64,000 nucleotides of DNA, taken from positions 3,717,888-3,781,887 of the forward strand of contig OZ252032.1 in NCBI GenBank assembly GCA_965247655.1, given 5' to 3'. The DNA is from Candidatus Poribacteria bacterium. Lineage in GTDB: Bacteria > Poribacteria > WGA-4E > PCPOR2b. The notes below the pieces were generated by a model, which was given only the letters and a program-made list of their open reading frames with translations, did no database searches and had not been told where the DNA came from. Shown here piece after piece: positions 17,373 through 32,021 of the stretch; the first letter of the stretch is position 1, and each line of letters begins with the position of its first letter. The position numbers and the translations under genes are program-made.

Positions 17373-19856
17373 TTAAAAACTAGAGTACCACATCAAATCG
17401 AAATGAACTCCCCGCTCAGAGTCGAAAGGTTTGGACAAGTTAAATCTGAGAGGAGACTCCTGCCCTAACTGCAATCCTATGCCGGCACTTGTCTTCGGGT
17501 CAAAGCGGTACGGCTTATCAGACACGTTCCAGACTTGCCCTTGATCAAGAAACAATACGAGGAACGTCTTCACATGCTTTAACCACTCCCAACCGTATGG
17601 ATTAGGCATGGGTAGGCGGTAGAAATATTCCAAATTGAGTAGGGAGACGTGATCGCCTGCAAACACATGCAGCGGATATCCGCTAAGCGTTCCCCTGCCC
17701 CCAATAATAAATTGGCGTTGAATCGGCAGTGCGCTTGTGGCAGCACCTAACACCAGTCGTGTGCGGATAATGTCGTCCCCTCTTGAGGCAGCATATCGCA
17801 GCTGTAGCTGGAATCGCGTAAAATCAAAGTCTGACCCAACAGCAGGGTTACTATGTTCAATGAGCAGGGTATTGTGCCAGCCAAGGCTACTGTTTTGCAA
17901 AGGCACAGAGACGCCTGTGGAAGATATTTGTGGGGTGTTGTCTTTCCGGGCGTTTAGGTGGTATCTCAATGTAACACTCTGCAACTGCCCGGGGGTTATT
18001 GGGGGATTTTCTTCCGCTTCCGATTCTGAACCCCAGTTTCCAAATTGCCAATCTGTAGTCTTCTGTAGGCTCTCATGTGACTCGGCACGCATCGTCAATT
18101 CGAACGAATGTGTTGGCACCACCGGCGCCCATCGCACCGATGTCTTGACACCTTTGCTCAAATAGTAGTTATGAAATCCGAGCGCCCAAAACGCATCTGA
18201 CACACCGCCATAGTGTGGGAAGAGCTCAGGAGCGATAGCAGTTGTGGCACGATGGATTTGAGCAGAGATACCCAGACTTGATGCGCCGGACTGACTCCAA
18301 ATCATGTCGCCACCCACCCGGTAATTGAGATCCCGATTTCCGAACCCATAGCCGCCCTCGCCAAAGAGTTTCGGCAGATACGCTCTAACCGAATTGGGAA
18401 CGTTCGACATCCAGAGCGGACCTATCTGCCTCCGTTTTCCCATTTCAAGATGAGCACCAAGCAGCCAACCAGTAACACGATTAAATTGAATGAGCGGAAA
18501 CGCATGGAAATAATAGTCTGAGGAGAGCCTTCTTTCCACAACGGTAATTATTGCAACGCGCCTTGTGCCGTCATTTTCAAACTGTAGGGAGACTCGACTA
18601 AAATAGGGTAGGGCGTCTTTCAAATTATCAATCGCTTTTTCGACTTCGTCAGGTCCGTTTTCAAGGACGGCTTGAATCTCCGCTTCACCGATTTTCTGAT
18701 TTCCTTGAATCCGGACTTCGTGAATTGGATCTCTCGCGGCAGTCCAAAGCCCCGTAGGTGAAGAGGTTAGCAAACGCGTTGTATCCGGCTGTGCTATGAC
18801 TATGATTGTTGCGATACGTCTCGTATCGTTACCCTTAATTTCTACGACGACCCGATTCAAATCCGGCAAGGGTAAGTAGGCAATCGCTTTTACGATATCC
18901 TCAGGTCCATTTTCAAGAGCAGTTTGAATCTCTGCATTGGTGACTTTCTGATTTCCTTGAACTCGGATTTCGTGAATCGGTTTACCTTCAGAAGTCCGAA
19001 ACCGTGTTGGAGTGGCTTGTCCTTGCGGGGTTTTATTGGGACGTATTATCAGCGAAGTTGGCAAACGTCGCACATCCGATTGCACTGTGACAATAATTGT
19101 TGCGACGCGTGTGCCACCTTCTGCATCGATCCGGACTGTTAGTGTTTGAATATCCGGGAGTTTGCTACGCAAGGTTGCCATAGCCGCAATGATTTCATCT
19201 GGGCCTTCCTCAAGCACTGTTCTAATTTGCGGTTCAATGGTTGTCTGATTGGCTTGAATTTGCACCTCATGAATCGGGTCGCCTTCGGGCATCCGAAGCA
19301 AGGTTGAAGTAGATGTGGTATTACGCCTTGCACCGAATGTGCTCAGTTCAGGTATATCAATGCCAACTTGATTCAAATTGCCCACGAGTTCGCTCACCTG
19401 TTTTGGCGCGAGCCGACCGTCTATATTTATCAGATACAGCGCCTTTCTGCCCGTGTCTCCACTGTGCTGATACACGGTCTTTTCGCTTTTGACAATTACA
19501 AAGATACTGATAACGGTGTCGCTTTGCGTGAGGGTATATAGGTGACAGTTCGCGCTTTTTTCTAACGCACTCCACCCACGTATTTTCAAGTTCGTCCCGT
19601 AATGATCAAGCATCTTGTCAAAATGACGAGCCTTGTAGGCGCGGAGGTGCAGGTGCTCGAGCGTGCTAAATTGCGAGGCAGTATCGGCGCTCATGTTTTC
19701 CATAACTAGCGCGATCGTACTGCGGTCTAAATCAAATCGAAACTCGACAAAAGGCTCATCGGGATAATCGAAAGGAACACGACCACTTTGTGGTTGTGCG
19801 TTCGCCGCTCTACTAAGTATGAGGAGTGAGAGGAAGAGAAGCATGAAGTGTTTCAT
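17373..19856 (-). CDS. Omp85/BamA-family outer-membrane protein with three tandem POTRA-like repeats
   Basis: Signal peptide MKHFMLLFLSLLILSRAANA. Three ~85-aa repeats (DPIHEVxIQGNQKxxxAEIQxxLENGPDE...). C-terminal D15-type barrel (GGRGTLSGY...NLEY...) ending in F. Confidence 0.75.
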   Translation of the reverse strand: MKHFMLLFLSLLILSRAANAQPQSGRVPFDYPDEPFVEFRFDLDRSTIALVMENMSADTASQFSTLEHLHLRAYKARHFDKMLDHYGTNLKIRGWSALEKSANCHLYTLTQSDTVISIFVIVKSEKTVYQHSGDTGRKALYLINIDGRLAPKQVSELVGNLNQVGIDIPELSTFGARRNTTSTSTLLRMPEGDPIHEVQIQANQTTIEPQIRTVLEEGPDEIIAAMATLRSKLPDIQTLTVRIDAEGGTRVATIIVTVQSDVRRLPTSLIIRPNKTPQGQATPTRFRTSEGKPIHEIRVQGNQKVTNAEIQTALENGPEDIVKAIAYLPLPDLNRVVVEIKGNDTRRIATIIVIAQPDTTRLLTSSPTGLWTAARDPIHEVRIQGNQKIGEAEIQAVLENGPDEVEKAIDNLKDALPYFSRVSLQFENDGTRRVAIITVVERRLSSDYYFHAFPLIQFNRVTGWLLGAHLEMGKRRQIGPLWMSNVPNSVRAYLPKLFGEGGYGFGNRDLNYRVGGDMIWSQSGASSLGISAQIHRATTAIAPELFPHYGGVSDAFWALGFHNYYLSKGVKTSVRWAPVVPTHSFELTMRAESHESLQKTTDWQFGNWGSESEAEENPPITPGQLQSVTLRYHLNARKDNTPQISSTGVSVPLQNSSLGWHNTLLIEHSNPAVGSDFDFTRFQLQLRYAASRGDDIIRTRLVLGAATSALPIQRQFIIGGRGTLSGYPLHVFAGDHVSLLNLEYFYRLPMPNPYGWEWLKHVKTFLVLFLDQGQVWNVSDKPYRFDPKTSAGIGLQLGQESPLRFNLSKPFDSERGVHFDLMWYSSF

Positions 19857-20007: not shown

Positions 20008-21423
20008 TCAGTTATTCAAAAACTGTTTCGCCCTTTCATATACCTCTTGGGCTTTCCCATACGAGATGGCTGCGGCTTTTGCTGCGGCAACCAAGTGGCG
20101 AAAACGGAGTGGAGGGCGGGTTGTTTGAAACTCTTCAACCGTTGCCTGATGGTGCTTCAACGCGTGCATCTCTGTCGCGTTATCCCGGCAGGCGATTTCG
20201 GTGAGGCGGGTGATTAATGCTTGCGGCTCATGTCCCAATTCTCCATACCTTGCCGTTAGCGTTGCTGCTCCGTCAACGTTATTGGCAGCGATAGCTTCCT
20301 CAATGGCAGACAATAGTTGGCTCTGACCTTGTTGAGGAATTGCAGCTACAGCATCGGGAGAGGGGTAGGGTCCGGCATCAATACGCTCTTTCGCATTTCT
20401 GACCTCGGGGCCCGAATTCCATAGCAGGAGGGCTAATATCTTGTTTTCTTTACAGATACCGTTGACCCGCAGGACATGACGCCTCACATTGACGCCGGTG
20501 TGCATGTGGACATCCATCGGATTGCTGGTATCCAAGCGCAAGAAAAGGTCTGAAGCAGCGAACGAAAGTGCTTCACCGGCTCCCTCTAAGGACAGCCCGT
20601 CCGCAAGTGCTTGGGCGGTCGTTTCAGGGATGTCAGCAAAGGCGCAGTCATTCAACCCTGCACGCAATTGAACGATAGCCTCGGTTTCATCGGCTCCCGT
20701 CGTTTGGCGCAGCGGGATTGAAAGCAGCTGATATTTCTCAATCAACTCGGTAATTTCTTGCACAGGTTTCGCTGAAGGCGGCTGTGAGATATAGCGTACG
20801 GGACCACGGGTGAGTACCTGAAGGTGCTCCCAATCGAGCCATTCGAGTACCCGCCACGTATAGACTGGATAGATGAATTTATGGTCATCCATCAGATTCT
20901 TTAGGAGGGCAACCGTCAGAAGCATATCCAGTGCTTCTTCGTGCGGCACGTTCTGAACGAGCCAAAGAAAGTAATGGTCGGCGTCATTGACAGAGCCACG
21001 CCGCACTGCATCAAAGAACGCTTGTTTGGTTCCCTCAACTCCACCGGCATCAAGCGGTTCAAATGCTGGCAACAGATAGGGACCCATAGAGGGGTGATGG
21101 ATATGCTTATTGGCTAAAGCGACGTTTTGCACCACGGGTAGAAAGCGATTGTCCCCAGAAAGCCTTGAGGCTATCTCTTTCACCGCATGTATCCCAGAGA
21201 CGGGATGCATGTGTCCGCCGTGATGGCCCCACTGCCCGTTCGCAAAGAAAGGCATCTCCGATGAACGGACGGCCGCTAGCGCAGAAGCGGTACACATTTC
21301 CTTAATCGAAACCCCAGCGTGGAGTTTTTCTATCGTCTTTTCCACAATGTCTTCAGGTGCGGTTTCCTCTACAAATTGCACCTGAGGTTCTATAGTATCG
21401 GGATATTGGACACTCGTGTACAT
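20008..21423 (-). CDS. Hypothetical protein (471 aa), His-rich N-terminal block
   Basis: Long ORF with a strong RBS (AAAGGAGG). Contains GHHGGHMHPVSGIH and KHIHHP. I recognise no family. Confidence 0.6.
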   Translation of the reverse strand: MYTSVQYPDTIEPQVQFVEETAPEDIVEKTIEKLHAGVSIKEMCTASALAAVRSSEMPFFANGQWGHHGGHMHPVSGIHAVKEIASRLSGDNRFLPVVQNVALANKHIHHPSMGPYLLPAFEPLDAGGVEGTKQAFFDAVRRGSVNDADHYFLWLVQNVPHEEALDMLLTVALLKNLMDDHKFIYPVYTWRVLEWLDWEHLQVLTRGPVRYISQPPSAKPVQEITELIEKYQLLSIPLRQTTGADETEAIVQLRAGLNDCAFADIPETTAQALADGLSLEGAGEALSFAASDLFLRLDTSNPMDVHMHTGVNVRRHVLRVNGICKENKILALLLWNSGPEVRNAKERIDAGPYPSPDAVAAIPQQGQSQLLSAIEEAIAANNVDGAATLTARYGELGHEPQALITRLTEIACRDNATEMHALKHHQATVEEFQTTRPPLRFRHLVAAAKAAAISYGKAQEVYERAKQFLNN

Positions 21424-22357: not shown

Positions 22358-23755
22358 CTATGGCGAAAAGAAAATCTGCCACACCCCATTTTCTTTTCGC
22401 ATCTTATGAAGTGCGTCCGGTATCTTCGGCATTTCAAACCCCGACGCCCCCGGCACTTCCGGTGACGGTATTCTTATTTGAAAGTGGAATTCATCACCTA
22501 CATGCTCGCTGCTCACAATCTCTACCTGACCAAACATCTGTTTAAGTATCGGTTGCATCATCTCCCTAAGCATCGGAAGCATCTCATCTACTATATCTGC
22601 TGGCATCACATCATAATACATATCTACAAGATCTTGTGGTAACTCCCCATTTAAGACAGGCAACATTGCACTCTCAAACTCTTCCTTGGCAGCCCCTGTC
22701 ATTAAGATGCGCATTGCGTCAGCATCTAAATTCCTAAACGCCTCTACGTAAGCGTTCATCACATCTTCAGCGGACTGTCCCTCGTCATCTAATAACGTAG
22801 AGGAGTCAGTAAAGAGGCTCTGATCCGCTTCCATTTCAAATTCTGCCTCTGTCATGAATTGTTCCGTATCTGTTTCTTCGGATTGTCCCAAGAAATCGTC
22901 AACCAGTTCCAATCCTTCTGTGGAAATCTGTGACTGATTGTCACGGTTCTCTGCATCTTGAGCAGAATCAGTTTGGGCAGCCAAGCCTTCGGAGTTGTTT
23001 CGTGGGCGGGGTGTGCCGTCCTCCCACGGCGACAAATACACGCGCTCCTCGATTATAGGCGCATTCATCTGGCGGATACCGACGAAACCGATGAAAATCA
23101 GCGCAACCAACGCTGCTACCCCAACCGTTATTTTAGGCACCGTTCCCACTTTCATGACAGTTAGACCTCCTGAATAAATTTTCTTTAGCATCGTTGCAGG
23201 AGAAACGAAGATACCGGTCAGAAGATATTGCAACCGTTTGGAGAGTTGTCGCTTGGCACGCGACAGCCGAAACGCAATGGCGTTATATGACAGCCCGTGC
23301 GTATTTATCAGTTCGTCGTAGCTTGCGCCATCGAGGTAATACGCGCGGGCAATCTCCCTATCTTTTTCCGAGAGCGTCTCCATCGCGCGGCGAATCAATT
23401 CCCTCTGCTCCTGCCGTATTAATCGCTCATCAGAGGAATCTTCTGTTTGAAGTATCTGTTCACTCACTTCGTCAATGGGAACGGTATCGATTCGCTGTTT
23501 TCTCAGCCAACTTCGTGCGCGATTTCGTGCAATCTCCCCCAACCAATTTTTGAACTTTGCCATCTCCTGATACTGCGCCAAACCGCGATAGGCATTGAGA
23601 AAGGTGTCTTGTACAACTTCCTCGGCATCGTGTGGATTGTTCACAATTCTGATAACAATCGCATAAACGAAGGGATAATATACCCGTATCAACTCAACAA
23701 ATGCACCTTCGTCCCCAGATTGGGCACGGTGAATGAGTGTGTTGTCGTTAGCCAT
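22358..23755 (-). CDS. ECF-type sigma-70 factor fused to a transmembrane helix and an acidic extracytoplasmic C-terminal domain
   Basis: Region 2 (DAEEVVQDTFLNAYR) and region 4 (SYDELINTHGLSYNAIAFRLSRAKRQL), then a TM segment (ITVGVAALVALIFIGFVGI) and about 235 further residues. Confidence 0.8.
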   Translation of the reverse strand: MANDNTLIHRAQSGDEGAFVELIRVYYPFVYAIVIRIVNNPHDAEEVVQDTFLNAYRGLAQYQEMAKFKNWLGEIARNRARSWLRKQRIDTVPIDEVSEQILQTEDSSDERLIRQEQRELIRRAMETLSEKDREIARAYYLDGASYDELINTHGLSYNAIAFRLSRAKRQLSKRLQYLLTGIFVSPATMLKKIYSGGLTVMKVGTVPKITVGVAALVALIFIGFVGIRQMNAPIIEERVYLSPWEDGTPRPRNNSEGLAAQTDSAQDAENRDNQSQISTEGLELVDDFLGQSEETDTEQFMTEAEFEMEADQSLFTDSSTLLDDEGQSAEDVMNAYVEAFRNLDADAMRILMTGAAKEEFESAMLPVLNGELPQDLVDMYYDVMPADIVDEMLPMLREMMQPILKQMFGQVEIVSSEHVGDEFHFQIRIPSPEVPGASGFEMPKIPDALHKMRKENGVWQIFFSP

Positions 23756-23771
23756 GGCACGTTGTTCCTCC

Positions 23772-23798
23772 CTTGCATTCTATTATTAACGCCGTTCT
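23772..23798 (-). promoter_or_regulatory. Candidate ECF-type promoter (AGAAC-N17-GCAAG) upstream of 22358..23755
   Basis: The minus strand reads AGAAC (23798-23794), 17 nt, GCAAG (23776-23772). It is preceded by the conserved A-tract block AAAAAAGTGCTAAAAAAA shared with the paralog. Confidence 0.3.
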
Positions 23799-23975
23799 GC
23801 GAATTTTTTTAGCACTTTTTTGGAGATTTAACTGTCTAAATCCAGATTTACTGGATTAAAGGACTCTTAGAATAACAGATTTTTCACGCTCGACAAATAA
23901 AAAAAGGCGAATGGATTGAACCATTCGCCTTATGAAGTCCTTTGGGATTGAGTTGCCGGTTGCTTTAACGTTTCA

Positions 23976-25451
23976 CTACTCATTGTTGTCATAGATTCGC
24001 CACGTCCCATCCACTCTCCGCATCTTAACAAGACTCTCCATGCTCTCCGGTAGCTGTGGCATCTTCGGAATTTCCAGTCCCGGCACCTGTGGTATCTCCG
24101 GCATCTCCGGCATCGGTGTTCTTACTTGGAAGTGGAATTCATCCCCCACATATTCACTGCTCACAACTTCTGCCTGACCATACATCTGACTAAACACCTC
24201 CCGGGCCCTCGCCTGCACCTCCGAATCCTGCATCATCTCCCGCATCATCTGCCTCCCCCTATTTACCATCTCTTCTGACATCCCTTCTGGCATATCATCT
24301 GCTACGTTATTTACCAATTCTTCTGAAATTACCAATTCTAACTCTCCGCCCAAGATACGAAAAGCACCCTCCGCTCTTTCTCTGGCGACCCCTGTCACGA
24401 GTGGGAGTAATGCCTCAAAGTCAGCATTTTTGTACGCCTCCATATAAGCATACATCACATCTTCAGCGGACCGACCCTCGTCGTCTAATAACGTGGCGAT
24501 ATCGGTAAAGAGACTCTGATTCGCCTCTATCTTAAATTCTGCGTCTGTCGTGAATTGCGCTGTACCCGTTTCTTCAGATTGACTGAAGAAATCGTCAACT
24601 AGGTCCAGCCCTTCCGTAGAAATCTGTGACTGATTGTCCCGGTTTTCTGTGTCTTGAGTAGAATCAGTTTGGGCAGCCAAGCCTTCGGAGTTGTTTCGTA
24701 GGCGTTCAGTGCCGTCCTCCCATGGGGACAGATATACACGCTCCTCAACTATGGGCGCATTCATCTGGCGGACACCCACGAAACCGATAAGAATCAGCGC
24801 AATCAGCGCTGCTACCCCAATCGTTATTTTAGGCACCGTTCCAATTTTCATGACAGTTAGACCTCCTGAATAAATCTTTTTTAGTGTCATCGCGGGAGAA
24901 ACGAAGATACCAGTCAGAAGATATTGCAATCGTTTGGAGAGTTGCCGCTTTGCACGCGATAGTCGAAATGCAATTGCGTTGTATGACAGCCCGTGCGTCC
25001 TTGTTAGCTCGTCGTAGCTCGCTCCGTCTAAATAGAAAGCTTGGGCAATCTTCCTGTCTTTTTGCGGAAGCGTTTCCATTGTCCGGCGAATCAACTCTCT
25101 CTGCTCCTGCCGTATTAATCGCTCATCAGAAGTATCTTCCGTTTGAAGCGTCTGTTCGCTTACTTCGTCAATGGATACGGTATCGCTCCTCTGTTTTCGG
25201 AGCCAGTTTCGTGCACAATTTTGTGCAATCTCTGCCAACCAACTTTTAAATTTGGCTGCATCCTCAAGCTGTGCCAGCCCTCGATAAGCATTGAAGAACG
25301 CGTCTTGTACTACCTCTTCGGTGTCGTGGGAATTTTTCACGATTCTAATAACAATCGCATAGACGAAGGGGTAGTGTTCTCGCATTAGAGCAGCAAAAGC
25401 CCCTTCATTCCCGGTTTGGGCACGATGGATGAGTGTGTTGTCCTTAGCCAT
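23976..25451 (-). CDS. ECF-type sigma-70 factor fused to a TM helix and extracytoplasmic domain (tandem paralog)
   Basis: The N-terminal ~290 aa are nearly collinear with 22358..23755. The C-terminal domain is diverged and longer. Confidence 0.8.
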   Translation of the reverse strand: MAKDNTLIHRAQTGNEGAFAALMREHYPFVYAIVIRIVKNSHDTEEVVQDAFFNAYRGLAQLEDAAKFKSWLAEIAQNCARNWLRKQRSDTVSIDEVSEQTLQTEDTSDERLIRQEQRELIRRTMETLPQKDRKIAQAFYLDGASYDELTRTHGLSYNAIAFRLSRAKRQLSKRLQYLLTGIFVSPAMTLKKIYSGGLTVMKIGTVPKITIGVAALIALILIGFVGVRQMNAPIVEERVYLSPWEDGTERLRNNSEGLAAQTDSTQDTENRDNQSQISTEGLDLVDDFFSQSEETGTAQFTTDAEFKIEANQSLFTDIATLLDDEGRSAEDVMYAYMEAYKNADFEALLPLVTGVARERAEGAFRILGGELELVISEELVNNVADDMPEGMSEEMVNRGRQMMREMMQDSEVQARAREVFSQMYGQAEVVSSEYVGDEFHFQVRTPMPEMPEIPQVPGLEIPKMPQLPESMESLVKMRRVDGTWRIYDNNE

Positions 25452-25467: not shown

Positions 25468-25493
25468 CTTACACTTTATTAAGACACAGTTCC
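25468..25493 (-). promoter_or_regulatory. Candidate ECF-type promoter (GGAAC-N16-GTAAG) upstream of 23976..25451
   Basis: The minus strand reads GGAAC (25493-25489), 16 nt, GTAAG (25472-25468). The same upstream A-tract block is present. Confidence 0.3.
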
Positions 25494-25666
25494 GAGATTT
25501 TTTTTAGCACTTTTTTGCATTGAGACGTGAATTTTTATTTTTGGTTGGCTTTGGTAGGATTAGGCAAATTGAGAGTACATTTGGTCGCAGGAAGTTGACT
25601 ACCAATAAAAAAAGCCGACCTATGATGAGTCGGCTTTCGTATTTCATACCTTAATATTGGGAGGGG

Positions 25667-27949
25667 CTACACTGTTGCACCGTGTTTTCGGAGGATTTCA
25701 GCAATTTCCGTATGCCCTTTTTTCTCTGCCCAAGCGAGTGGGGTTGCCCACGATGCGCCTGCCAGATTGGGGTCTGCGCCGCGGTCAAGCAGAAACTCAG
25801 CCAGATCTTTGTTACCAAACCGCGCTGCCCAACCGAGCGGGGTTGACTTTAACTTGTCTTCCATCGCATTGATGTCAGCACCGTGATTGAGCAGCATACG
25901 GGCAAACTCGACGACCTCTTCTGCTGTATGTCCATAAGTTATAGGATTACAACTCTTGCCAGCCAAGTGATGAAGGATCGTGAAGTTGAACCGCTCATCC
26001 CGTGGATTTCGGAGGTTCGGGTCTATCCCGTATTCGAGCAGCTTATCCAAATTGGTGATGTAGTTGCGACGGTCAAATCCCTCGTTGTTGATTTTCAGAT
26101 CGCCCAGCCGCCAACCGCGTACCGATTGTTCCAACAAATTAAACCACTTGGTGTCATCATACTGTGGATTATCGCGTAGTCCCATCTCGACCACATCAAT
26201 ATTACCCGCCAGAATCGCGCTCCAGAGTAATTCTTTGCGTTCTGATGTATCTCGCTGAAGGATTTCCGAAATGGCAGGGAGATTGTTTGTGAGACAGTAA
26301 CTCAACAGATCAGCAACTGCGCCGTGTTGGAACATCAGATCCGCAACGCGCTTGTGTCCATATTGATACGCCCAGCAGACGGCGTTACCAGACGCGTAGA
26401 CCGCCGTGTTTGGATTTGCCCCGCTCTCAATCAACAATTTCACAACCTCATAATGTCCACGATTGGCTGCAAGCCAAAGCGGATGTCCCCACTGTTTCAC
26501 CTTCTCGCCGGCGACATCAATTTCAAACGGAGAATCCGGATCTGCCCCAGCGTCAATTAGCAGTTGGACAACTTGCGTATGTCCTTGAAAACAAGCGACG
26601 ACCAGCGGGTTGTCATAGTCTCCCCAGAACGGTTCTCTGCTTTTGCATAGCTGGGTCTTATCCTCACAGGCGTCAATAAACCGCTTCACGCCTTCGACAT
26701 CGCCGACGCCGCAGGCAACCCAGAGATCATACGTCGCGCCACGTGCGGGCAAGGCACCCGCGAGGATGGCGTAGGTTTTGTACATCTCATCCGGCTCCTT
26801 CCAACTGTGTGCGAGGCAGTGGTGGATCGGACGACTTCCGTCCGCTGCCCGGTGGTCAACATCGGCACCCCGGTCTAGCAACTCAAGGACAAGCGATAAA
26901 TCGCCCCTGCCAATCGCTTCAAAAAGCGCAGTTTTTCCGCCCCGATCGGTTGCATTGATAAGCTCTGCCTCCTCGTTGAGCAATGAGCGGATCTGTTCAA
27001 TATCGCCGCCTGCTGCAGCATGGGTTAAGGCTTCACCCTTTGGTGTCGTCCCCCGTTGCTCGTTGAGCCACCCTTCAATGACCTCAACGACAGCGGTGTA
27101 CCCACGGTCTTTTGCTATTGTCAGCGCACTAGTGGCTTCACGGTGGGGATATATCCCGTTGAGCGGGTCTGCTCCTGCTTCTAGTAGCACACGCACGATT
27201 TCAGCATGCCCCTCTTCCACTGCAAGGTGGATGGGCTGATGTTCATTATTTGAAGCGATGTCTTGGGTTGCTAACTCCGGCTTGACGGCGAGGATCTCCT
27301 GAACCCGTTGCAGGTCGCCCACTTGCGCCGCATTGCAGATGCCGACTGCATTGACAAACGAATCGTCACGTGAGGGTGCGTTTCGATGGAGTGTATCTTT
27401 TAACATAGTAATCATCCTTTCGGAATGTAAGGTTGCTTTTAGACGCTTCCTTGAGGCACGGAGTCGGTTATCGACCGTCGTCACCGGCACCTCCAGGAAG
27501 TCCGCAATCTGTTTCTGTGAAAAACCGCTGATATAGAAGAGCGTTGTGACCTGACGCTGGCTCTCCGGCAATGCAGCGACCGCAGCCAACACGAGGGATT
27601 TCGTCTCTTGTTCCTCAATTTCAACCGCCGGATCTCTCCTGCCCGAAGGTATCTCAAGCATCGTTTCTAGGGGCATGAGTTCGTCGCGCTTTCCGCGTGT
27701 CAACCGATTGCAGTGTTTGAAAATAATCCTGCGGAACCAGCCCGGGAACGCAACGGGACCATAGACCCTTGAAAGGATCGGATACGCCTCAATGAATGCC
27801 TCTTGCACTGCATCTTCAGCCAGATGGAAATCCCCTAAGATGGAGAAGGCGTAGCCCACAGCCATATCTTGGAACTGTTGGACAATCCTACCGTAGGCAT
27901 CCAGATCCCCGGCTTGTGCACGACTGATAAGTGATTCTAGCTCTTCCAT
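25667..27949 (-). CDS. ECF-type sigma-70 factor fused to a ~550-aa ankyrin-repeat domain
   Basis: N-terminal ~185 aa hold sigma regions 2 and 4 (EDAVQEAFIEAY; SQKQIADFLEVPVTTVDNRLRASRKRL). At least 10 ankyrin-like repeats follow (for example PIHLAVEEGHAEIVRVLLEAGADP, TPLGWAARFGNKDLAEFLLDRGADPN). No TM segment. Confidence 0.8.
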   Translation of the reverse strand: MEELESLISRAQAGDLDAYGRIVQQFQDMAVGYAFSILGDFHLAEDAVQEAFIEAYPILSRVYGPVAFPGWFRRIIFKHCNRLTRGKRDELMPLETMLEIPSGRRDPAVEIEEQETKSLVLAAVAALPESQRQVTTLFYISGFSQKQIADFLEVPVTTVDNRLRASRKRLKATLHSERMITMLKDTLHRNAPSRDDSFVNAVGICNAAQVGDLQRVQEILAVKPELATQDIASNNEHQPIHLAVEEGHAEIVRVLLEAGADPLNGIYPHREATSALTIAKDRGYTAVVEVIEGWLNEQRGTTPKGEALTHAAAGGDIEQIRSLLNEEAELINATDRGGKTALFEAIGRGDLSLVLELLDRGADVDHRAADGSRPIHHCLAHSWKEPDEMYKTYAILAGALPARGATYDLWVACGVGDVEGVKRFIDACEDKTQLCKSREPFWGDYDNPLVVACFQGHTQVVQLLIDAGADPDSPFEIDVAGEKVKQWGHPLWLAANRGHYEVVKLLIESGANPNTAVYASGNAVCWAYQYGHKRVADLMFQHGAVADLLSYCLTNNLPAISEILQRDTSERKELLWSAILAGNIDVVEMGLRDNPQYDDTKWFNLLEQSVRGWRLGDLKINNEGFDRRNYITNLDKLLEYGIDPNLRNPRDERFNFTILHHLAGKSCNPITYGHTAEEVVEFARMLLNHGADINAMEDKLKSTPLGWAARFGNKDLAEFLLDRGADPNLAGASWATPLAWAEKKGHTEIAEILRKHGATV

Positions 27950-28250: not shown

Positions 28251-28724
28251 TTGGCTAAGAAAGTTATTCATACAACAATTAATGGAGAGGCACACACACA
28301 CGAAGTTGAGCCACGGCTGCTTTTGGTTCACTACATCCGAGATGTTGTTGGTTTGACCGGCTCACACGTCGGTTGTGAAACGAGCCTGTGTGGTGCTTGT
28401 ACGGTTACAGTGAACGGACAAGCAGTCAAATCGTGTACGATGCTGGCGGTCCAAGCGGATGGCGCGGAAATTACAACCATCGAAGGCTTGGCGCAAAATG
28501 GAGATCTTCACGCCATTCAAGAGGGGTTCTGGGAACGTCACGGCTTGCAGTGTGGTTTCTGTACTCCCGGAATGATTATGGCAGCCCATCAACTGCTGGA
28601 GCGGCATCCCAACCCAACGGAAGATGAGATACGGCACGGGTTGGAAGGCAATCTTTGCCGCTGCACCGGTTATCAGCATATTGTTGAGGCGGTCCAACAC
28701 GCTGCGGAGAAGATGCAGGGCTAA
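28251..28724 (+). CDS. coxS: (2Fe-2S)-binding small subunit of a xanthine-dehydrogenase/CODH-family molybdoenzyme
   Basis: [19 protein letters not shown] and CRCTGY cysteine clusters. TTG start 8 nt after AAAGGAGG. Confidence 0.85.
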
Positions 28725-28762
28725 CAAGCAAGAGATAGGACGCAAATAGGAGGATCGATATT

Positions 28763-31099
28763 ATGGCAACAATAGCGGCACCGACTCGAATGATAGGCGC
28801 CCCGATTAAACGACGCGAGGATCCACGATTAATCCAAGGGTTATCCCATTATGTCGACGATATTAAGCTGGTGGGCACCCTTCACTGTGCCTTCGTGCGC
28901 AGCGACTATGCACATGCAGTCATCAACAGCATTGATACAACAGCAGCCAAAGAATTGCCCGGCGTCGTTACGGTGATTACCGCCGAAGACCTTGGCGAGG
29001 TTGGGGGCATCCCTTGTGGCGCGGAAATTCCAGGCCTTAAGGTGCCAGATCACCCTCCGCTGGCAGTGGGGCGTGTCCGGTTCGTTGGGGAAGCAGTCGC
29101 TGCGGTTGTGGCGACAGATGCGTATATTGCCAGGGATGCGCTGGACCTGATTGAAGTTGATTATGAAGCGCTGCCCGCTGTTACTGACCTCGATAAGGCG
29201 GTCGAGGCGGATTCACCGTTGATTTATGACGACTTTGGCGACAATATCGGTTTCACAATGCCGTTAGAGGCAGGGGATGCCGATGCTGCTTTCGCAGAAG
29301 CGAATCATGTGGTATCTCAGCGTTTCGTCAATCAGCGTCTGGTTCCGAATGCGATGGAAACGCGTGGGGTGTTAGCTGAATATCTACCGGGCGAAGGCAC
29401 CCTTACCGTCTGGTCATCAACGCAGGTTCCACACATTCTTAAAACGCAGTTGTCTCTTATCGTCAACGTGCCGGAACAGAAAGTGCGCGTCATCGCCCCG
29501 GAAGTTGGCGGCGGCTTCGGTAGTAAGTTAAATGTCTACCCCGAAGAGGTCGTTGTTTCGTATTTGGCGATACAATTACGTAAACCAGTGAAATGGACGG
29601 AGAAGCGGACTGAGAACTTCACAACGACAATCCATGGGCGAGACCAAGTCAACTATGTGGATGTCGCAGTTAATAACGATGGGACAATCACAGGGATTCG
29701 TGCGAAAATCCTCGCCGACCTTGGTGCGTCCTATCAGCTGCTCACCCCGCTGATTCCCACATTGACAAATCTCATGATTGTCGGCTGTTACAAGATTCCA
29801 AACGTTCAGATCGAATTGGTCGGTGTCTTAACGAACAAGATGGCGACGGATGCGTACCGCGGTGCGGGGCGTCCCGAAGCGACCTACATCATTGAGCGCA
29901 TGGTTGATCTGGCAGCATCGGCGGTAGGAATGGATCCGAAAGATATTCGGTTCAAAAACTTCCCGCAGCCGACTGAATTCCCGCTTGAAATCCCAACTGG
30001 AATTGTCTACGACAGTGGCAACTACCAAGAAAGCTTTAACAAGGCACTGGGAATTGTCGACTATGATGGTCTACGAAGCCAGCAGGCGCAACTTCGTGAG
30101 CAGGGCAGATATCTAGGAATTGGTATCTCCACCTATGCTGAGATTTGTGGTATGGGCCCCTCCATAGCGATGCCCGCCGGCGGTTGGGAAAGTAGCACCG
30201 TCCGGGTCGAACCGACTGGAAAGATTACGGTGTTGACTGGTGTTTCACCACACGGTCAGGGCCAAGAGACCACCTTTGCACAGCTGATCGCCGATGAGTT
30301 TGGCGTCGATATTGATGATATCATAGTCATCCACGGCGACACAGGAAGGCAGCCTTACGGTATCGGTACCTTTGGTAGTCGGGCGACGGCTGTCGGTGGA
30401 ACGGCGATGGTTATCGCTGCGGGTCAGGTGAAGGAAAAGATGGCAAAATTCGCAGCCCATCTGATGGAAGCCAACTCCGAGGACCTTGTCTTTGGAGACG
30501 GACAGATCTTCGTCGAAGGTTCACCGGATCAAGCGATTGATTTCGCGGCGATTGCCCTAGAAGCACACGTCGCCAAGAATCTACCGCCCGACACGACGCC
30601 TGGCCTCGAAGCAACGCATTTCTTTGAACCGTCCAACTTCACCTATCCATTCGGTGCCCACATCGCAGTGGTCGAGGTTGACACCGATACCGGTGAGATT
30701 GATATTCAGCGATATGTATGCGTTGACGATATCGGCAATATCATCAATCCCTTAATTGTTGCGGGACAGGTACATGGTGGCATTGCACAAGGTTTGGGGC
30801 AGGCACTGTATGAAGGAGCGGTCTACGATGAGAGCGGGCAGCTTTTGACCGGCTCATTGATGGATTATGCCGTTCCCAAGGCGACACAGGTGCCCCACTT
30901 TGAAACAGACCATACGGTGACTCCTTCACCTGTAAATCCGATGGGTGTTAAAGGAGTTGGTGAAGCCGGAACGATTGGCTCAACGCCGTGTATGGTCAAT
31001 GCCGTTGTGGACGCCTTATCGCCGTTTGGGGTGAAGGATATCGAAATGCCGCTGACGCCGAACCGTGTGTGGCAGGCAATTCAAGATGCAAAGGGTTAA
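28763..31099 (+). CDS. coxL: Molybdopterin-binding large subunit, form-II (putative) CoxL type
   Basis: 778 aa. The active-site loop reads AYRGAGR (form-II signature), not AYxCSFR of bona fide form-I CO dehydrogenase. Confidence 0.8.
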   Translation: MATIAAPTRMIGAPIKRREDPRLIQGLSHYVDDIKLVGTLHCAFVRSDYAHAVINSIDTTAAKELPGVVTVITAEDLGEVGGIPCGAEIPGLKVPDHPPLAVGRVRFVGEAVAAVVATDAYIARDALDLIEVDYEALPAVTDLDKAVEADSPLIYDDFGDNIGFTMPLEAGDADAAFAEANHVVSQRFVNQRLVPNAMETRGVLAEYLPGEGTLTVWSSTQVPHILKTQLSLIVNVPEQKVRVIAPEVGGGFGSKLNVYPEEVVVSYLAIQLRKPVKWTEKRTENFTTTIHGRDQVNYVDVAVNNDGTITGIRAKILADLGASYQLLTPLIPTLTNLMIVGCYKIPNVQIELVGVLTNKMATDAYRGAGRPEATYIIERMVDLAASAVGMDPKDIRFKNFPQPTEFPLEIPTGIVYDSGNYQESFNKALGIVDYDGLRSQQAQLREQGRYLGIGISTYAEICGMGPSIAMPAGGWESSTVRVEPTGKITVLTGVSPHGQGQETTFAQLIADEFGVDIDDIIVIHGDTGRQPYGIGTFGSRATAVGGTAMVIAAGQVKEKMAKFAAHLMEANSEDLVFGDGQIFVEGSPDQAIDFAAIALEAHVAKNLPPDTTPGLEATHFFEPSNFTYPFGAHIAVVEVDTDTGEIDIQRYVCVDDIGNIINPLIVAGQVHGGIAQGLGQALYEGAVYDESGQLLTGSLMDYAVPKATQVPHFETDHTVTPSPVNPMGVKGVGEAGTIGSTPCMVNAVVDALSPFGVKDIEMPLTPNRVWQAIQDAKG

Positions 31100-31166
31100 G
31101 ATAATTTTCCGAAGGTTTGAAACCTTCGGAAAGTTATGCTCAAGTGAAGGAAGGAGGATGTAAAGA

Positions 31167-32021
31167 ATGATTCCGGGAAGTTTTGAATACTTTGCACCGA
31201 CAGCACTTGATGAAGCGTTGTCGCTCTTGCAGGAACATGGAGACGATGCGAAGGTGCTCGCTGGTGGACATAGCTTGATCCCAACGATGAAATTACGTTT
31301 AGCTGAACCGGCGGTCATCATCGATATTGGACGCATCGGCGGCTTGAAAGGGATCTCTGAGTCTGGTGGAAAATTGGTTATCGGTGCGCTGACGACGCAT
31401 CATGAATTGGAGAGTTCAGATCTGGTCCAGCAGCGGGTGCCGCTGCTTGCACAAACCGCTGCCGAAATTGGTGATGTGCAGATACGCAACAAAGGCACAA
31501 TCGGCGGCAGCCTTGCACACGCTGATCCGGCTGCTGATTGGCCCGCGACGATTCTCGCGCTTGATGCTAATCTTCAAATCGCTGGTCCCAATGGCGAGCG
31601 GACTGTCAAAGCAACCGATTTCTTCCAAGGACTGTACGAGACAGACCTCGGAGACGACGAAATCCTTACGGCAGTCCATGTGTCGATTCCAGATGCTAAC
31701 ACCACAGGGACATATCTGAAGCTGCACCAAGTGGCATCAGGATTTGCCCTTGCGGGGGTGGCTGTTGTCTTGACGAAATCCGGAGACACTTGCCAGAGCG
31801 TCGCTGTCGGTATCACTGGTGTTTCGGATGCCCCATATCGGGCGTCGGGCGTCGAGTCTGCGCTGACAGGGGCGGCATTGACCGCTGAGAATATCGCTGC
31901 CGCTGCTGAGAGAGCGGTTGACGGGATAACTGCGTTGGAAGATCTCCACGCAAGTCAGGCGTATCGCGAAAACCTGGCGCAAGTCTACACCCGTCGGGCG
32001 ATTGAGAGTGCCGCGTCATAA
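31167..32021 (+). CDS. coxM: FAD-binding medium subunit (CoxM/CutM type)
   Basis: FEYFAPTALDEALSLLQEHGDDAKVLAGGHSLIPTMKLR N-terminus. The S-L-M gene order is typical of form-II clusters. Confidence 0.85.
   Translation: MIPGSFEYFAPTALDEALSLLQEHGDDAKVLAGGHSLIPTMKLRLAEPAVIIDIGRIGGLKGISESGGKLVIGALTTHHELESSDLVQQRVPLLAQTAAEIGDVQIRNKGTIGGSLAHADPAADWPATILALDANLQIAGPNGERTVKATDFFQGLYETDLGDDEILTAVHVSIPDANTTGTYLKLHQVASGFALAGVAVVLTKSGDTCQSVAVGITGVSDAPYRASGVESALTGAALTAENIAAAAERAVDGITALEDLHASQAYRENLAQVYTRRAIESAAS

Follow-up and report, generated by a model that had tools for sequence, protein, structure and literature searches.

Sigma factors of extracytoplasmic function (ECF) constitute a major bacterial signalling route, and almost all of them are restrained by an anti-sigma domain. 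The RpoE-RseA system and the pro-sigma-K/SpoIVFB system of Bacillus both free an active sigma factor through a site-2 protease. In IutY of Pseudomonas putida (FecI-like group ECF243), a sigma/anti-sigma hybrid, activation comes about through proteolysis by Prc and RseP. For the actinobacterial groups ECF52, of which SCO4117 of Streptomyces coelicolor is a member, ECF48 and ECF53, activation by proteolysis is a proposal with partial support (PMC8999054). SnoaL-like (NTF2-fold) C-terminal extensions occur without an anti-sigma factor in ECF41, ECF56, ECF294, ECF295 and ECF205 (PMC7826278), and many ECF paralogues of Planctomycetes combine highly conserved sigma2 and sigma4 regions with fast-diverging C-terminal extensions (PMC7671368). 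Here we describe two tandem genes, A and B, in a stretch of 64 kb of a Candidatus Poribacteria genome (contig OZ252032.1; hereafter the window). Each encodes an ECF sigma factor whose polypeptide chain runs on into a predicted transmembrane (TM) helix, a linker rich in acidic residues and a C-terminal folded domain.

The first-pass annotation of this DNA had held that such an architecture was without experimental characterisation. This goes too far, as the general design is known from IutY (ECF243) and SCO4117 (ECF52) (PMC8999054), and ECF factors with a membrane-spanning C-terminal extension form a known, partly characterised class. Like IutY, A and B are single polypeptides with an N-terminal ECF sigma factor, one TM helix and a predicted periplasmic C-terminal part. 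However, IutY has a FecR-type anti-sigma domain and a TonB-dependent receptor as partner, whereas in A and B only some 30 residues separate sigma4 from the membrane, FecR gave no match and the periplasmic domain is predicted to be NTF2-like. With ECF52 (SCO4117), ECF48 and ECF53 they share a membrane-crossing C-terminal extension ending in an extracytoplasmic domain, but these groups carry a zinc-finger anti-sigma module (ZAS-like, HxxxCxxC) before their TM helices, and SCO4117 also has a proline-rich region and a carbohydrate-binding domain, all of which A and B lack. An NTF2-type fold at the C-terminus of an ECF protein and the absence of an anti-sigma factor recall the ECF41-type groups. 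In those, the extension is cytoplasmic, fused directly to the sigma core and in contact with it, whereas the NTF2-like domain of A and B would lie beyond the TM helix and a 100-residue linker and so could not touch the core. As in Planctomycetes, a conserved core is joined to a faster-evolving extension; unlike there, the extensions share homology with one another instead of having multiple origins. The closest solved sigma factor to the core is RpoE of the E. coli RpoE-RseA pair, but RseA is encoded apart from its sigma factor and carries an anti-sigma domain. The pro-sigma-K of Bacillus differs in having an N-terminal pro-sequence, without a spanning helix or a sensor domain. A and B thus appear to represent an undescribed version of the design, a large, Poribacteria-restricted, arrayed family of tethered factors without an anti-sigma domain, with a periplasmic domain predicted to be NTF2-like and an upstream motif of its own. 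It is set apart from IutY/ECF243, ECF48/52/53, the ECF41-like groups and TIGR02989 by the features that define them.

Two complete ECF sigma factors predicted to span the membrane

The Pfam models Sigma70_r2 (residues 22-88, gathering score 24) and Sigma70_r4_2 (residues 119-171, gathering score 25.7) matched A with 61 and 29 bits and B with 56.5 and 32.6 bits, and the NCBIfam model TIGR02937 (sigma70-ECF) matched A and B with 104 and 94 bits (cut-off 42.9). Neither a sigma3 (r3) nor a sigma1.1 (r1) domain was matched in either protein in the Pfam and NCBIfam scan. By domain content A and B therefore classify as ECF (group 4) factors, which have sigma2 and sigma4 without sigma3 or sigma1.1. 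Residues 3-179 could be aligned to residues 9-192 of RpoE (1or7), so that regions 2.4 and 4.2 are covered. The sigma core is thus complete by Pfam, by TIGR02937 and by an end-to-end alignment to RpoE, as the first-pass annotation had proposed, and not deficient. No NCBIfam equivalog or subfamily model scored above its cut-off for A or B; the best subfamily model, TIGR02989 (Rhodopirellula/Verrucomicrobium type), scored A at 100.4 bits and B at 100.9 bits, short of its cut-off of 124.55.

Each protein showed a single hydropathy peak (residues 209-227, ITVGVAALVALIFIGFVGI, Kyte-Doolittle 2.7 over 19 residues), and the full-length AlphaFold model placed a helix at residues 209-231, in agreement with the TM helix predicted earlier for both proteins. 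The flank on the N-terminal side is rich in lysine (four lysines) and the flank on the C-terminal side is acidic, which by the positive-inside rule implies a predicted N-in/C-out topology. In the family alignment the TM glycines G212, G223 and G226 are conserved at 90% or more. The segment of about 30 residues between sigma4 and the membrane has a mean identity of 76% across the family, and juxtamembrane segment and TM helix together are conserved on a par with the sigma core. This segment is too short to hold an anti-sigma domain. It has no cysteine or histidine (residues 177-208), and the FecR (E up to 0.1), zf-HC2 and RskA models of Pfam found no match in A or B. The Pfam and NCBIfam scans revealed neither an anti-sigma gene nearby, as had been stated before, nor an anti-sigma domain within the two proteins.

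In the linker beyond the helix (residues 229-325), acidic residues (D/E) outnumber basic ones (K/R) by 26 to 4 in A and by 23 to 5 in B. The predicted local distance difference test score (pLDDT) of the full-length AlphaFold model was below 50 over residues 177-319, the linker included. The proposed single-chain architecture, in which an ECF sigma factor is joined to one TM helix, a linker of acidic character and a C-terminal part that folds, holds for A and for B.

The C-terminal domain measures 140-165 residues across A and B. Modelled alone on a 33-sequence alignment, it gave a pLDDT of 85 and a predicted template-modelling score of 0.75, with a fold in which five helices precede an antiparallel sheet of four strands. 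The top 50 PDB matches obtained with Foldseek were all NTF2-like, SnoaL, ketosteroid-isomerase or designed curved-sheet proteins. The matches were weak, with template-modelling scores (TM-scores) of 0.3-0.5 overall and 0.35-0.5 for the best, and probabilities up to 1.0; the E values of the best lay around 1e-3, and one match only fell below this value. Below threshold, Pfam matched MecA_N, SnoaL_3 (NTF2-like by name), DUF3828, Tim44 and MlaC, and we take the last three to belong to the NTF2-like clan. None of the SnoaL models of Pfam reached threshold, SnoaL_3 matching one member only (E 0.07). The NTF2/SnoaL-like fold suggested in the first-pass annotation is thus favoured by the nature of all the best structural matches, although the low TM-scores and sub-threshold Pfam matches make the assignment weak; we consider an NTF2-like fold reasonable but not proven. 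When searched alone against 1.84 billion proteins, the domain matched only 82 representative clusters. Variant architectures were seen among P0130 (594 residues), P0147, P0166 (380 residues) and L056:5944-6837. They comprise two tandem C-terminal domains after one sigma-TM unit, and a C-terminal domain placed on an unrelated non-sigma N-terminus. The L056 example is a natural open reading frame (ORF) made of the TM helix and the C-terminal domain without sigma.

A conserved core and diverging outer domains in a Poribacteria family

Overall, A and B are 69% identical in protein sequence. By region, the juxtamembrane segment is the most alike (89%), followed by sigma4 (87%), the linker (82%), the TM helix (81%), sigma2 (74%) and the C-terminal domain (52%). 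Over the first 290 residues identity amounts to 83%, for protein and DNA alike, so that the description of this part as near-identical was overstated. Near-identity had also been claimed for the promoter regions. It is confined to conservation of some 65 nt adjoining each start codon, the sequence farther upstream being unrelated. There, A and B each have their own strong terminator-like hairpin, belonging to the preceding gene, and they therefore look like separate transcription units.

The duplication that gave rise to A and B is not recent, and the pair is old and maintained. A-type and B-type genes hold their positions in several other Poribacteria genomes. Sigma cores encoded at the A position there share 86-98% identity with A, and those at the B position share 81-88% with B. 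Across the family, identity to A ranges from 62 to 98% in the sigma core and from 31 to 68% in the C-terminal domain. Pairwise Nei-Gojobori estimates between orthologues put the ratio of nonsynonymous to synonymous substitution rates (dN/dS) at 0.07-0.14 in sigma, 0.08-0.43 over juxtamembrane segment and TM helix together, 0.2-0.5 in the linker and 0.33-0.49 in the C-terminal domain. These values indicate strong purifying selection on the sigma core. They also indicate that the outer domain is functional and under purifying selection, yet evolves several times faster than the core. The earlier view that diverged sensory ends on a conserved core are the mark of duplicated sensors fits both the family identities and the dN/dS estimates.

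A full-length search returned 1543 homologues, the best 120 of which are 460-487 residues long with 74-100% identity; one of these best 120 carries the name Candidatus Poribacteria. In a locus scan using one genome per species, the family turned up in Candidatus Poribacteria alone: all of the 67 loci came from Poribacteria metagenome-assembled genomes, of which many are closed chromosomes measuring 4.7-7 Mb. Clustering of ORFs over all loci yielded 157 family ORFs in 68 loci, so that family genes usually sit in arrays. Two types of locus recur. The type found in the window, with the order ECF-ankyrin gene, B, A, 121-aa lipoprotein, 471-aa protein and Omp85-family protein, is present in about 10 genomes, while in the second type family genes alternate with genes for PD40 (TolB-like) beta-propeller proteins and 3-keto-disaccharide-hydrolase/DUF1080-like proteins.

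An upstream element common to the family

About 60 nt before the start codon lies an element of some 40 nt, AAAAAAGTG(C/G)TA(A/G)AAAAAATCNC(A/G)GAA(C/T)TG(T/C)(G/A)TCTT(G/A)(G/A)TA. With two substitutions allowed in its 16-nt core, it preceded family genes in 90 of 117 cases, PD40 genes in 19 of 61 and DUF1080-like genes in 4 of 12. The element was not found upstream of the 89 genes of seven other neighbour families (ECF-ankyrin 0/7; ECF sigma factors with a TM helix and M16 peptidase domains, ECF-TM-M16, 0/8; 121-aa lipoprotein 0/12; 471-aa protein 0/11; Omp85 family 0/16; two further families 0/35). Without exception, the 146 copies share the strand of the family gene, and a sigma-domain match was confirmed in 57 motif-preceded ORFs. 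The window contains two copies, before A and B only, against 0.07 expected by chance. Conservation stops at TCTTRRTA, beyond which the sequence varies with the following gene. ECF target promoters, autoregulated ones among them, commonly look like this when genomes are compared. These features fit a candidate ECF-dependent, autoregulated promoter, and the near-invariant sigma core suggests that all paralogues may read one shared element. A reading as GTGCTA-N17/18-(T/C)(G/A)TC for the -35 and -10 boxes would agree with ECF spacing but is only a guess. A sigmaE-type fit, GGAAC-N16-TCNAA, was rejected, as its spacing is about 3 nt too short and the embedded GGAAC lies too close to any plausible -10 box.

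Scanning the leaders against Rfam gave no meaningful family match. Family sequences are present in sponge metatranscriptome contigs, but these were uninformative for mapping transcript starts, since the contigs of related strains are fragmented, break at repeats and cross the motif. Arrays with PD40 and DUF1080-like genes were seen at loci L022, L025, L026, L027, L031, L037 and L048, where many of these PD40 and DUF1080-like genes have the same upstream motif. The PD40 genes of these arrays encode 320-350 residues, and some motif copies at PD40 or DUF1080-like genes are followed by a conserved leader of about 180 nt.

Proposed tethering to the membrane and release by proteolysis

We favour, as somewhat probable, the view that A and B are membrane-tethered "pro-sigma" factors, a form of one-component ECF signalling, released by regulated intramembrane proteolysis; the release, the identity of the signal and the reading of the motif are what we infer in this scheme. 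The sigma2-sigma4 core would reside in the cytoplasm, held at the inner membrane by the 30 or so conserved juxtamembrane residues and the single N-in/C-out TM helix, while the acidic, disordered linker would carry the NTF2-like domain into the periplasm. A signal sensed by the periplasmic part, or damage to it, would lead to site-1 trimming outside the membrane. A site-2 protease of the RseP type would then cut within the glycine-containing TM helix and free the sigma core, which would direct RNA polymerase to the 40-nt motif of A, B and their paralogues and, at other loci, of PD40 and DUF1080-like genes. Since neither an anti-sigma domain nor an anti-sigma gene was found, inhibition would come from the tether alone, and silencing by tethering without masking of the core is most likely.

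The proteolytic step is favoured by the conserved TM glycines and by the precedents of IutY and SCO4117. Conserved TM glycines are typical of site-2 protease substrates, and A and B match RseP-type substrates both in their predicted single-pass N-in/C-out (type II) topology and in having helix-destabilising glycines in the TM segment. Three points weigh against this scheme. The motif has no obvious fit to the classic GGAAC-N16/17-CGT spacing. Sponge metatranscriptome contigs run across it, which is unexpected for a pure promoter unless read-through or DNA carry-over is involved. Finally, a sigma factor released with a hydrophobic tail might be degraded instead of activated.

The family seems to manage without an anti-sigma domain, the tether serving to silence and the NTF2-like periplasmic domain to sense. 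It would thereby add a one-component design to the ECF catalogue and provide a clean test case of whether membrane tethering suffices to silence a sigma factor. Poribacteria are uncultivated sponge symbionts. The expansion of the family in arrays in these symbionts, together with a motif held in common with periplasmic PD40 proteins, suggests that it probably controls an envelope or host-interface response. The sigma core and its motif might also serve as an orthogonal expression switch.

A candidate internal start at codon 201

Codon 201 sits eight residues before the TM helix. Of 112 distinct family ORFs, 105 have ATG and 2 have GTG at this position, and four of the five exceptions form a divergent subgroup with a different juxtamembrane region. 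A GGAGG sequence lies 10 nt upstream in 86 of the 112, compared with 11 nt at the authentic start. Because the internal GGAGG requires it, Gly196 must be encoded by GGA, and this codon was found in 91 of 96 sequences (95%), against 28% GGA use family-wide. GGA use at six other conserved glycines was 0-30%, with the exception of Gly204 (102 of 105). The codon that follows position 201 is AAA in 94 of 109 sequences (86%). Among 43 conserved fourfold-degenerate codons, the least variable were V184, G196 and G204, all within 21 codons (P ~0.015). Between A and B, the synonymous distance dS was 0.24 over the juxtamembrane segment and TM helix (23072-23227 versus 24768-24923), whereas it was about 1.0 in the flanking sigma and C-terminal segments; the low local value could reflect constraint at the nucleotide level or local gene conversion. 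Together, the ATG at codon 201, the GGAGG, the GGA at codon 196 and the synonymous-site pattern point to selection acting on the nucleotides around codon 201, most simply on an internal ribosome-binding site and start.

Such a start would make each gene a dual-product gene, the second product being a sigma-less TM-linker-NTF2 protein of about 265 residues that could partner, buffer or compete with the full-length sensor. Possible but doubtful in our judgement, this is compatible with the tethered pro-sigma explanation, and a natural sigma-less ORF of this kind exists at L056. On the other hand, twelve members have no Shine-Dalgarno-like sequence upstream of codon 201, the two glycines and the methionine could be kept for protein reasons, and an ancestral two-gene operon could have left the signal behind as a relic. 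Sliding windows show no synonymous constraint over the region as a whole, which was also considered; the constraint around codon 201 is site-specific. Short database proteins beginning with "MKVGT..." are contig-edge artefacts and lend no support. We also rejected the idea that database proteins of 270-290 residues starting at Met201 represent split genes, since the frame is open upstream of Met201 over at least 170 codons in 62 of 67 loci, and over 200 in most. L068, the example that we checked, proved to be a fused gene truncated at the edge of a 1-kb contig, and its frame is open upstream. An RNA hairpin sequestering the internal GGAGG (UCUCCYG with CRGGAGG) was not supported. RNAalifold gave no consensus structure, the covariation was not significant (109 of 500 shuffles reached the observed score), and 18 of 44 sequences leave the sole covarying pair unpaired.

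In its most extended form this idea would have each gene produce two proteins, a tethered sigma factor and a sigma-less sensor from codon 201 that sets the threshold for release. Dozens of paralogues with shared promoter specificity and differing outer domains would then form an array, unique to Poribacteria, that feeds many inputs into one regulon; as a whole we rate this scheme as rather unlikely. The candidate start is in any case a testable instance of overlapping gene products in signalling.

Unlikely alternatives: activity without release and non-functional fusions

The sigma factor might instead never be released, but recruit RNA polymerase to the membrane and work while tethered, under conformational or oligomeric control through the TM helix. 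ToxR and CadC work while membrane-tethered, and NTF2-like domains often dimerise. No anti-sigma domain would need to be relieved in such a mechanism, the high conservation of the juxtamembrane segment and TM helix could reflect signal transmission, and dimerising NTF2-like domains would suit it. Nevertheless, the fused ECF factors characterised so far are activated by proteolysis, a disordered acidic linker of 100 residues would be a poor conduit for conformational signals, and the TM glycines are of the kind typical of site-2 protease substrates. We know of no membrane-tethered active sigma factor, and we consider activity without release quite improbable. That the fusion is an assembly artefact or a decaying pseudogene, or that its sigma part does not work, might be argued from a few truncated or frameshifted copies (L055, L056, L062) but is effectively refuted by more than 100 independent intact copies in dozens of genomes, closed chromosomes included, by the low dN/dS of the sigma core and by the occurrence of family sequences in sponge metatranscriptome contigs.

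Features of the locus and neighbouring genes

Table 1. Features of the gene pair and its surroundings (positions in the window)
Feature	Position	Strand	Remarks
Gene A, ECF sigma - TM - acidic linker - NTF2-like domain (predicted)	22358-23755	-	465 aa; Pfam and NCBIfam
A sigma region 2, residues 22-88	23492-23692	-	PF04542, 61 bits (cut-off 24)
A sigma region 4, residues 119-171	23243-23401	-	PF08281, 29 bits (cut-off 25.7)
A juxtamembrane segment, residues 177-208	23132-23227	-	many invariant residues
A in-frame GGAGG, codons 196-197	23166-23170	-	candidate internal ribosome-binding site
A codon 201 ATG	23153-23155	-	candidate internal start
A predicted TM helix, residues 209-228	23072-23131	-	Kyte-Doolittle 2.71; AlphaFold helix
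A acidic disordered linker, residues 229-325	22781-23071	-	predicted extracytoplasmic
A C-terminal alpha+beta domain, residues 326-465	22361-22780	-	NTF2-like by AlphaFold2 and Foldseek
A upstream motif AAAAAAGTGCTAAAAAAATTCGCAGAACGGCGTTAATA	23784-23821	-	candidate ECF-dependent promoter
A Shine-Dalgarno GGAGG	23767-23771	-	11 nt before ATG
Hairpin (11-bp stem) and T-run, terminator-like	23904-23931	-	ends gene B
Gene B, paralogue of A	23976-25451	-	491 aa; same architecture
B sigma region 2	25188-25388	-	
B sigma region 4	24939-25097	-	
B internal GGAGG	24862-24866	-	
B codon 201 ATG	24849-24851	-	
B predicted TM helix	24768-24827	-	
B linker	24477-24767	-	
B C-terminal domain	23979-24476	-	
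B upstream motif AAAAAAGTGCTAAAAAAAATCTCGGAACTGTGTCTTAATA	25477-25516	-	
Terminator-like hairpin	25610-25638	-	ends upstream ECF-ankyrin gene
ECF core (residues 1-175) and about 600 aa of ankyrin repeats	25667-27949	-	760 aa; directly upstream of B
Lipoprotein-like ORF, lipobox VISGC, C-terminal TM helix	21901-22266	-	121 aa; downstream neighbour, 12 loci
Protein without Pfam or NCBIfam match	20008-21423	-	471 aa; syntenic with sigma pair, no motif
Omp85-superfamily outer-membrane protein	17373-19856	-	827 aa; syntenic with sigma pair, no motif
CoxS/CoxL/CoxM-type operon, molybdopterin dehydrogenase (2Fe-2S, molybdenum cofactor-binding and flavin adenine dinucleotide-binding subunits)	28251-32021	+	divergent

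The ECF-ankyrin gene is syntenic with A and B in about 10 Poribacteria genomes. Its product has no TM helix by hydropathy, and the family motif was not found upstream of the gene, for which a sigma70-like promoter match was noted at 28057-28029. It is not a member of the MzaA family of anti-phage sigma factors, its score of 91 bits lying far below the cut-off of 800.

On the other side of the pair, the 121-aa ORF is not an anti-sigma factor, because its lipoprotein signal peptide leaves no cytoplasmic domain. In sponge metatranscriptomes its contig depth was 130-320 against 0-30 for A, a rough comparison affected by cross-mapping.

Poribacteria also have another type of membrane-spanning sigma factor, ECF-TM-M16, of about 885 residues (for example L006:7094-9751), in which an ECF core and a TM helix are joined to peptidase M16 domains with the motif HLLEH. 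Its genes, which lack the family motif, are often interleaved with the genes of the family described here.

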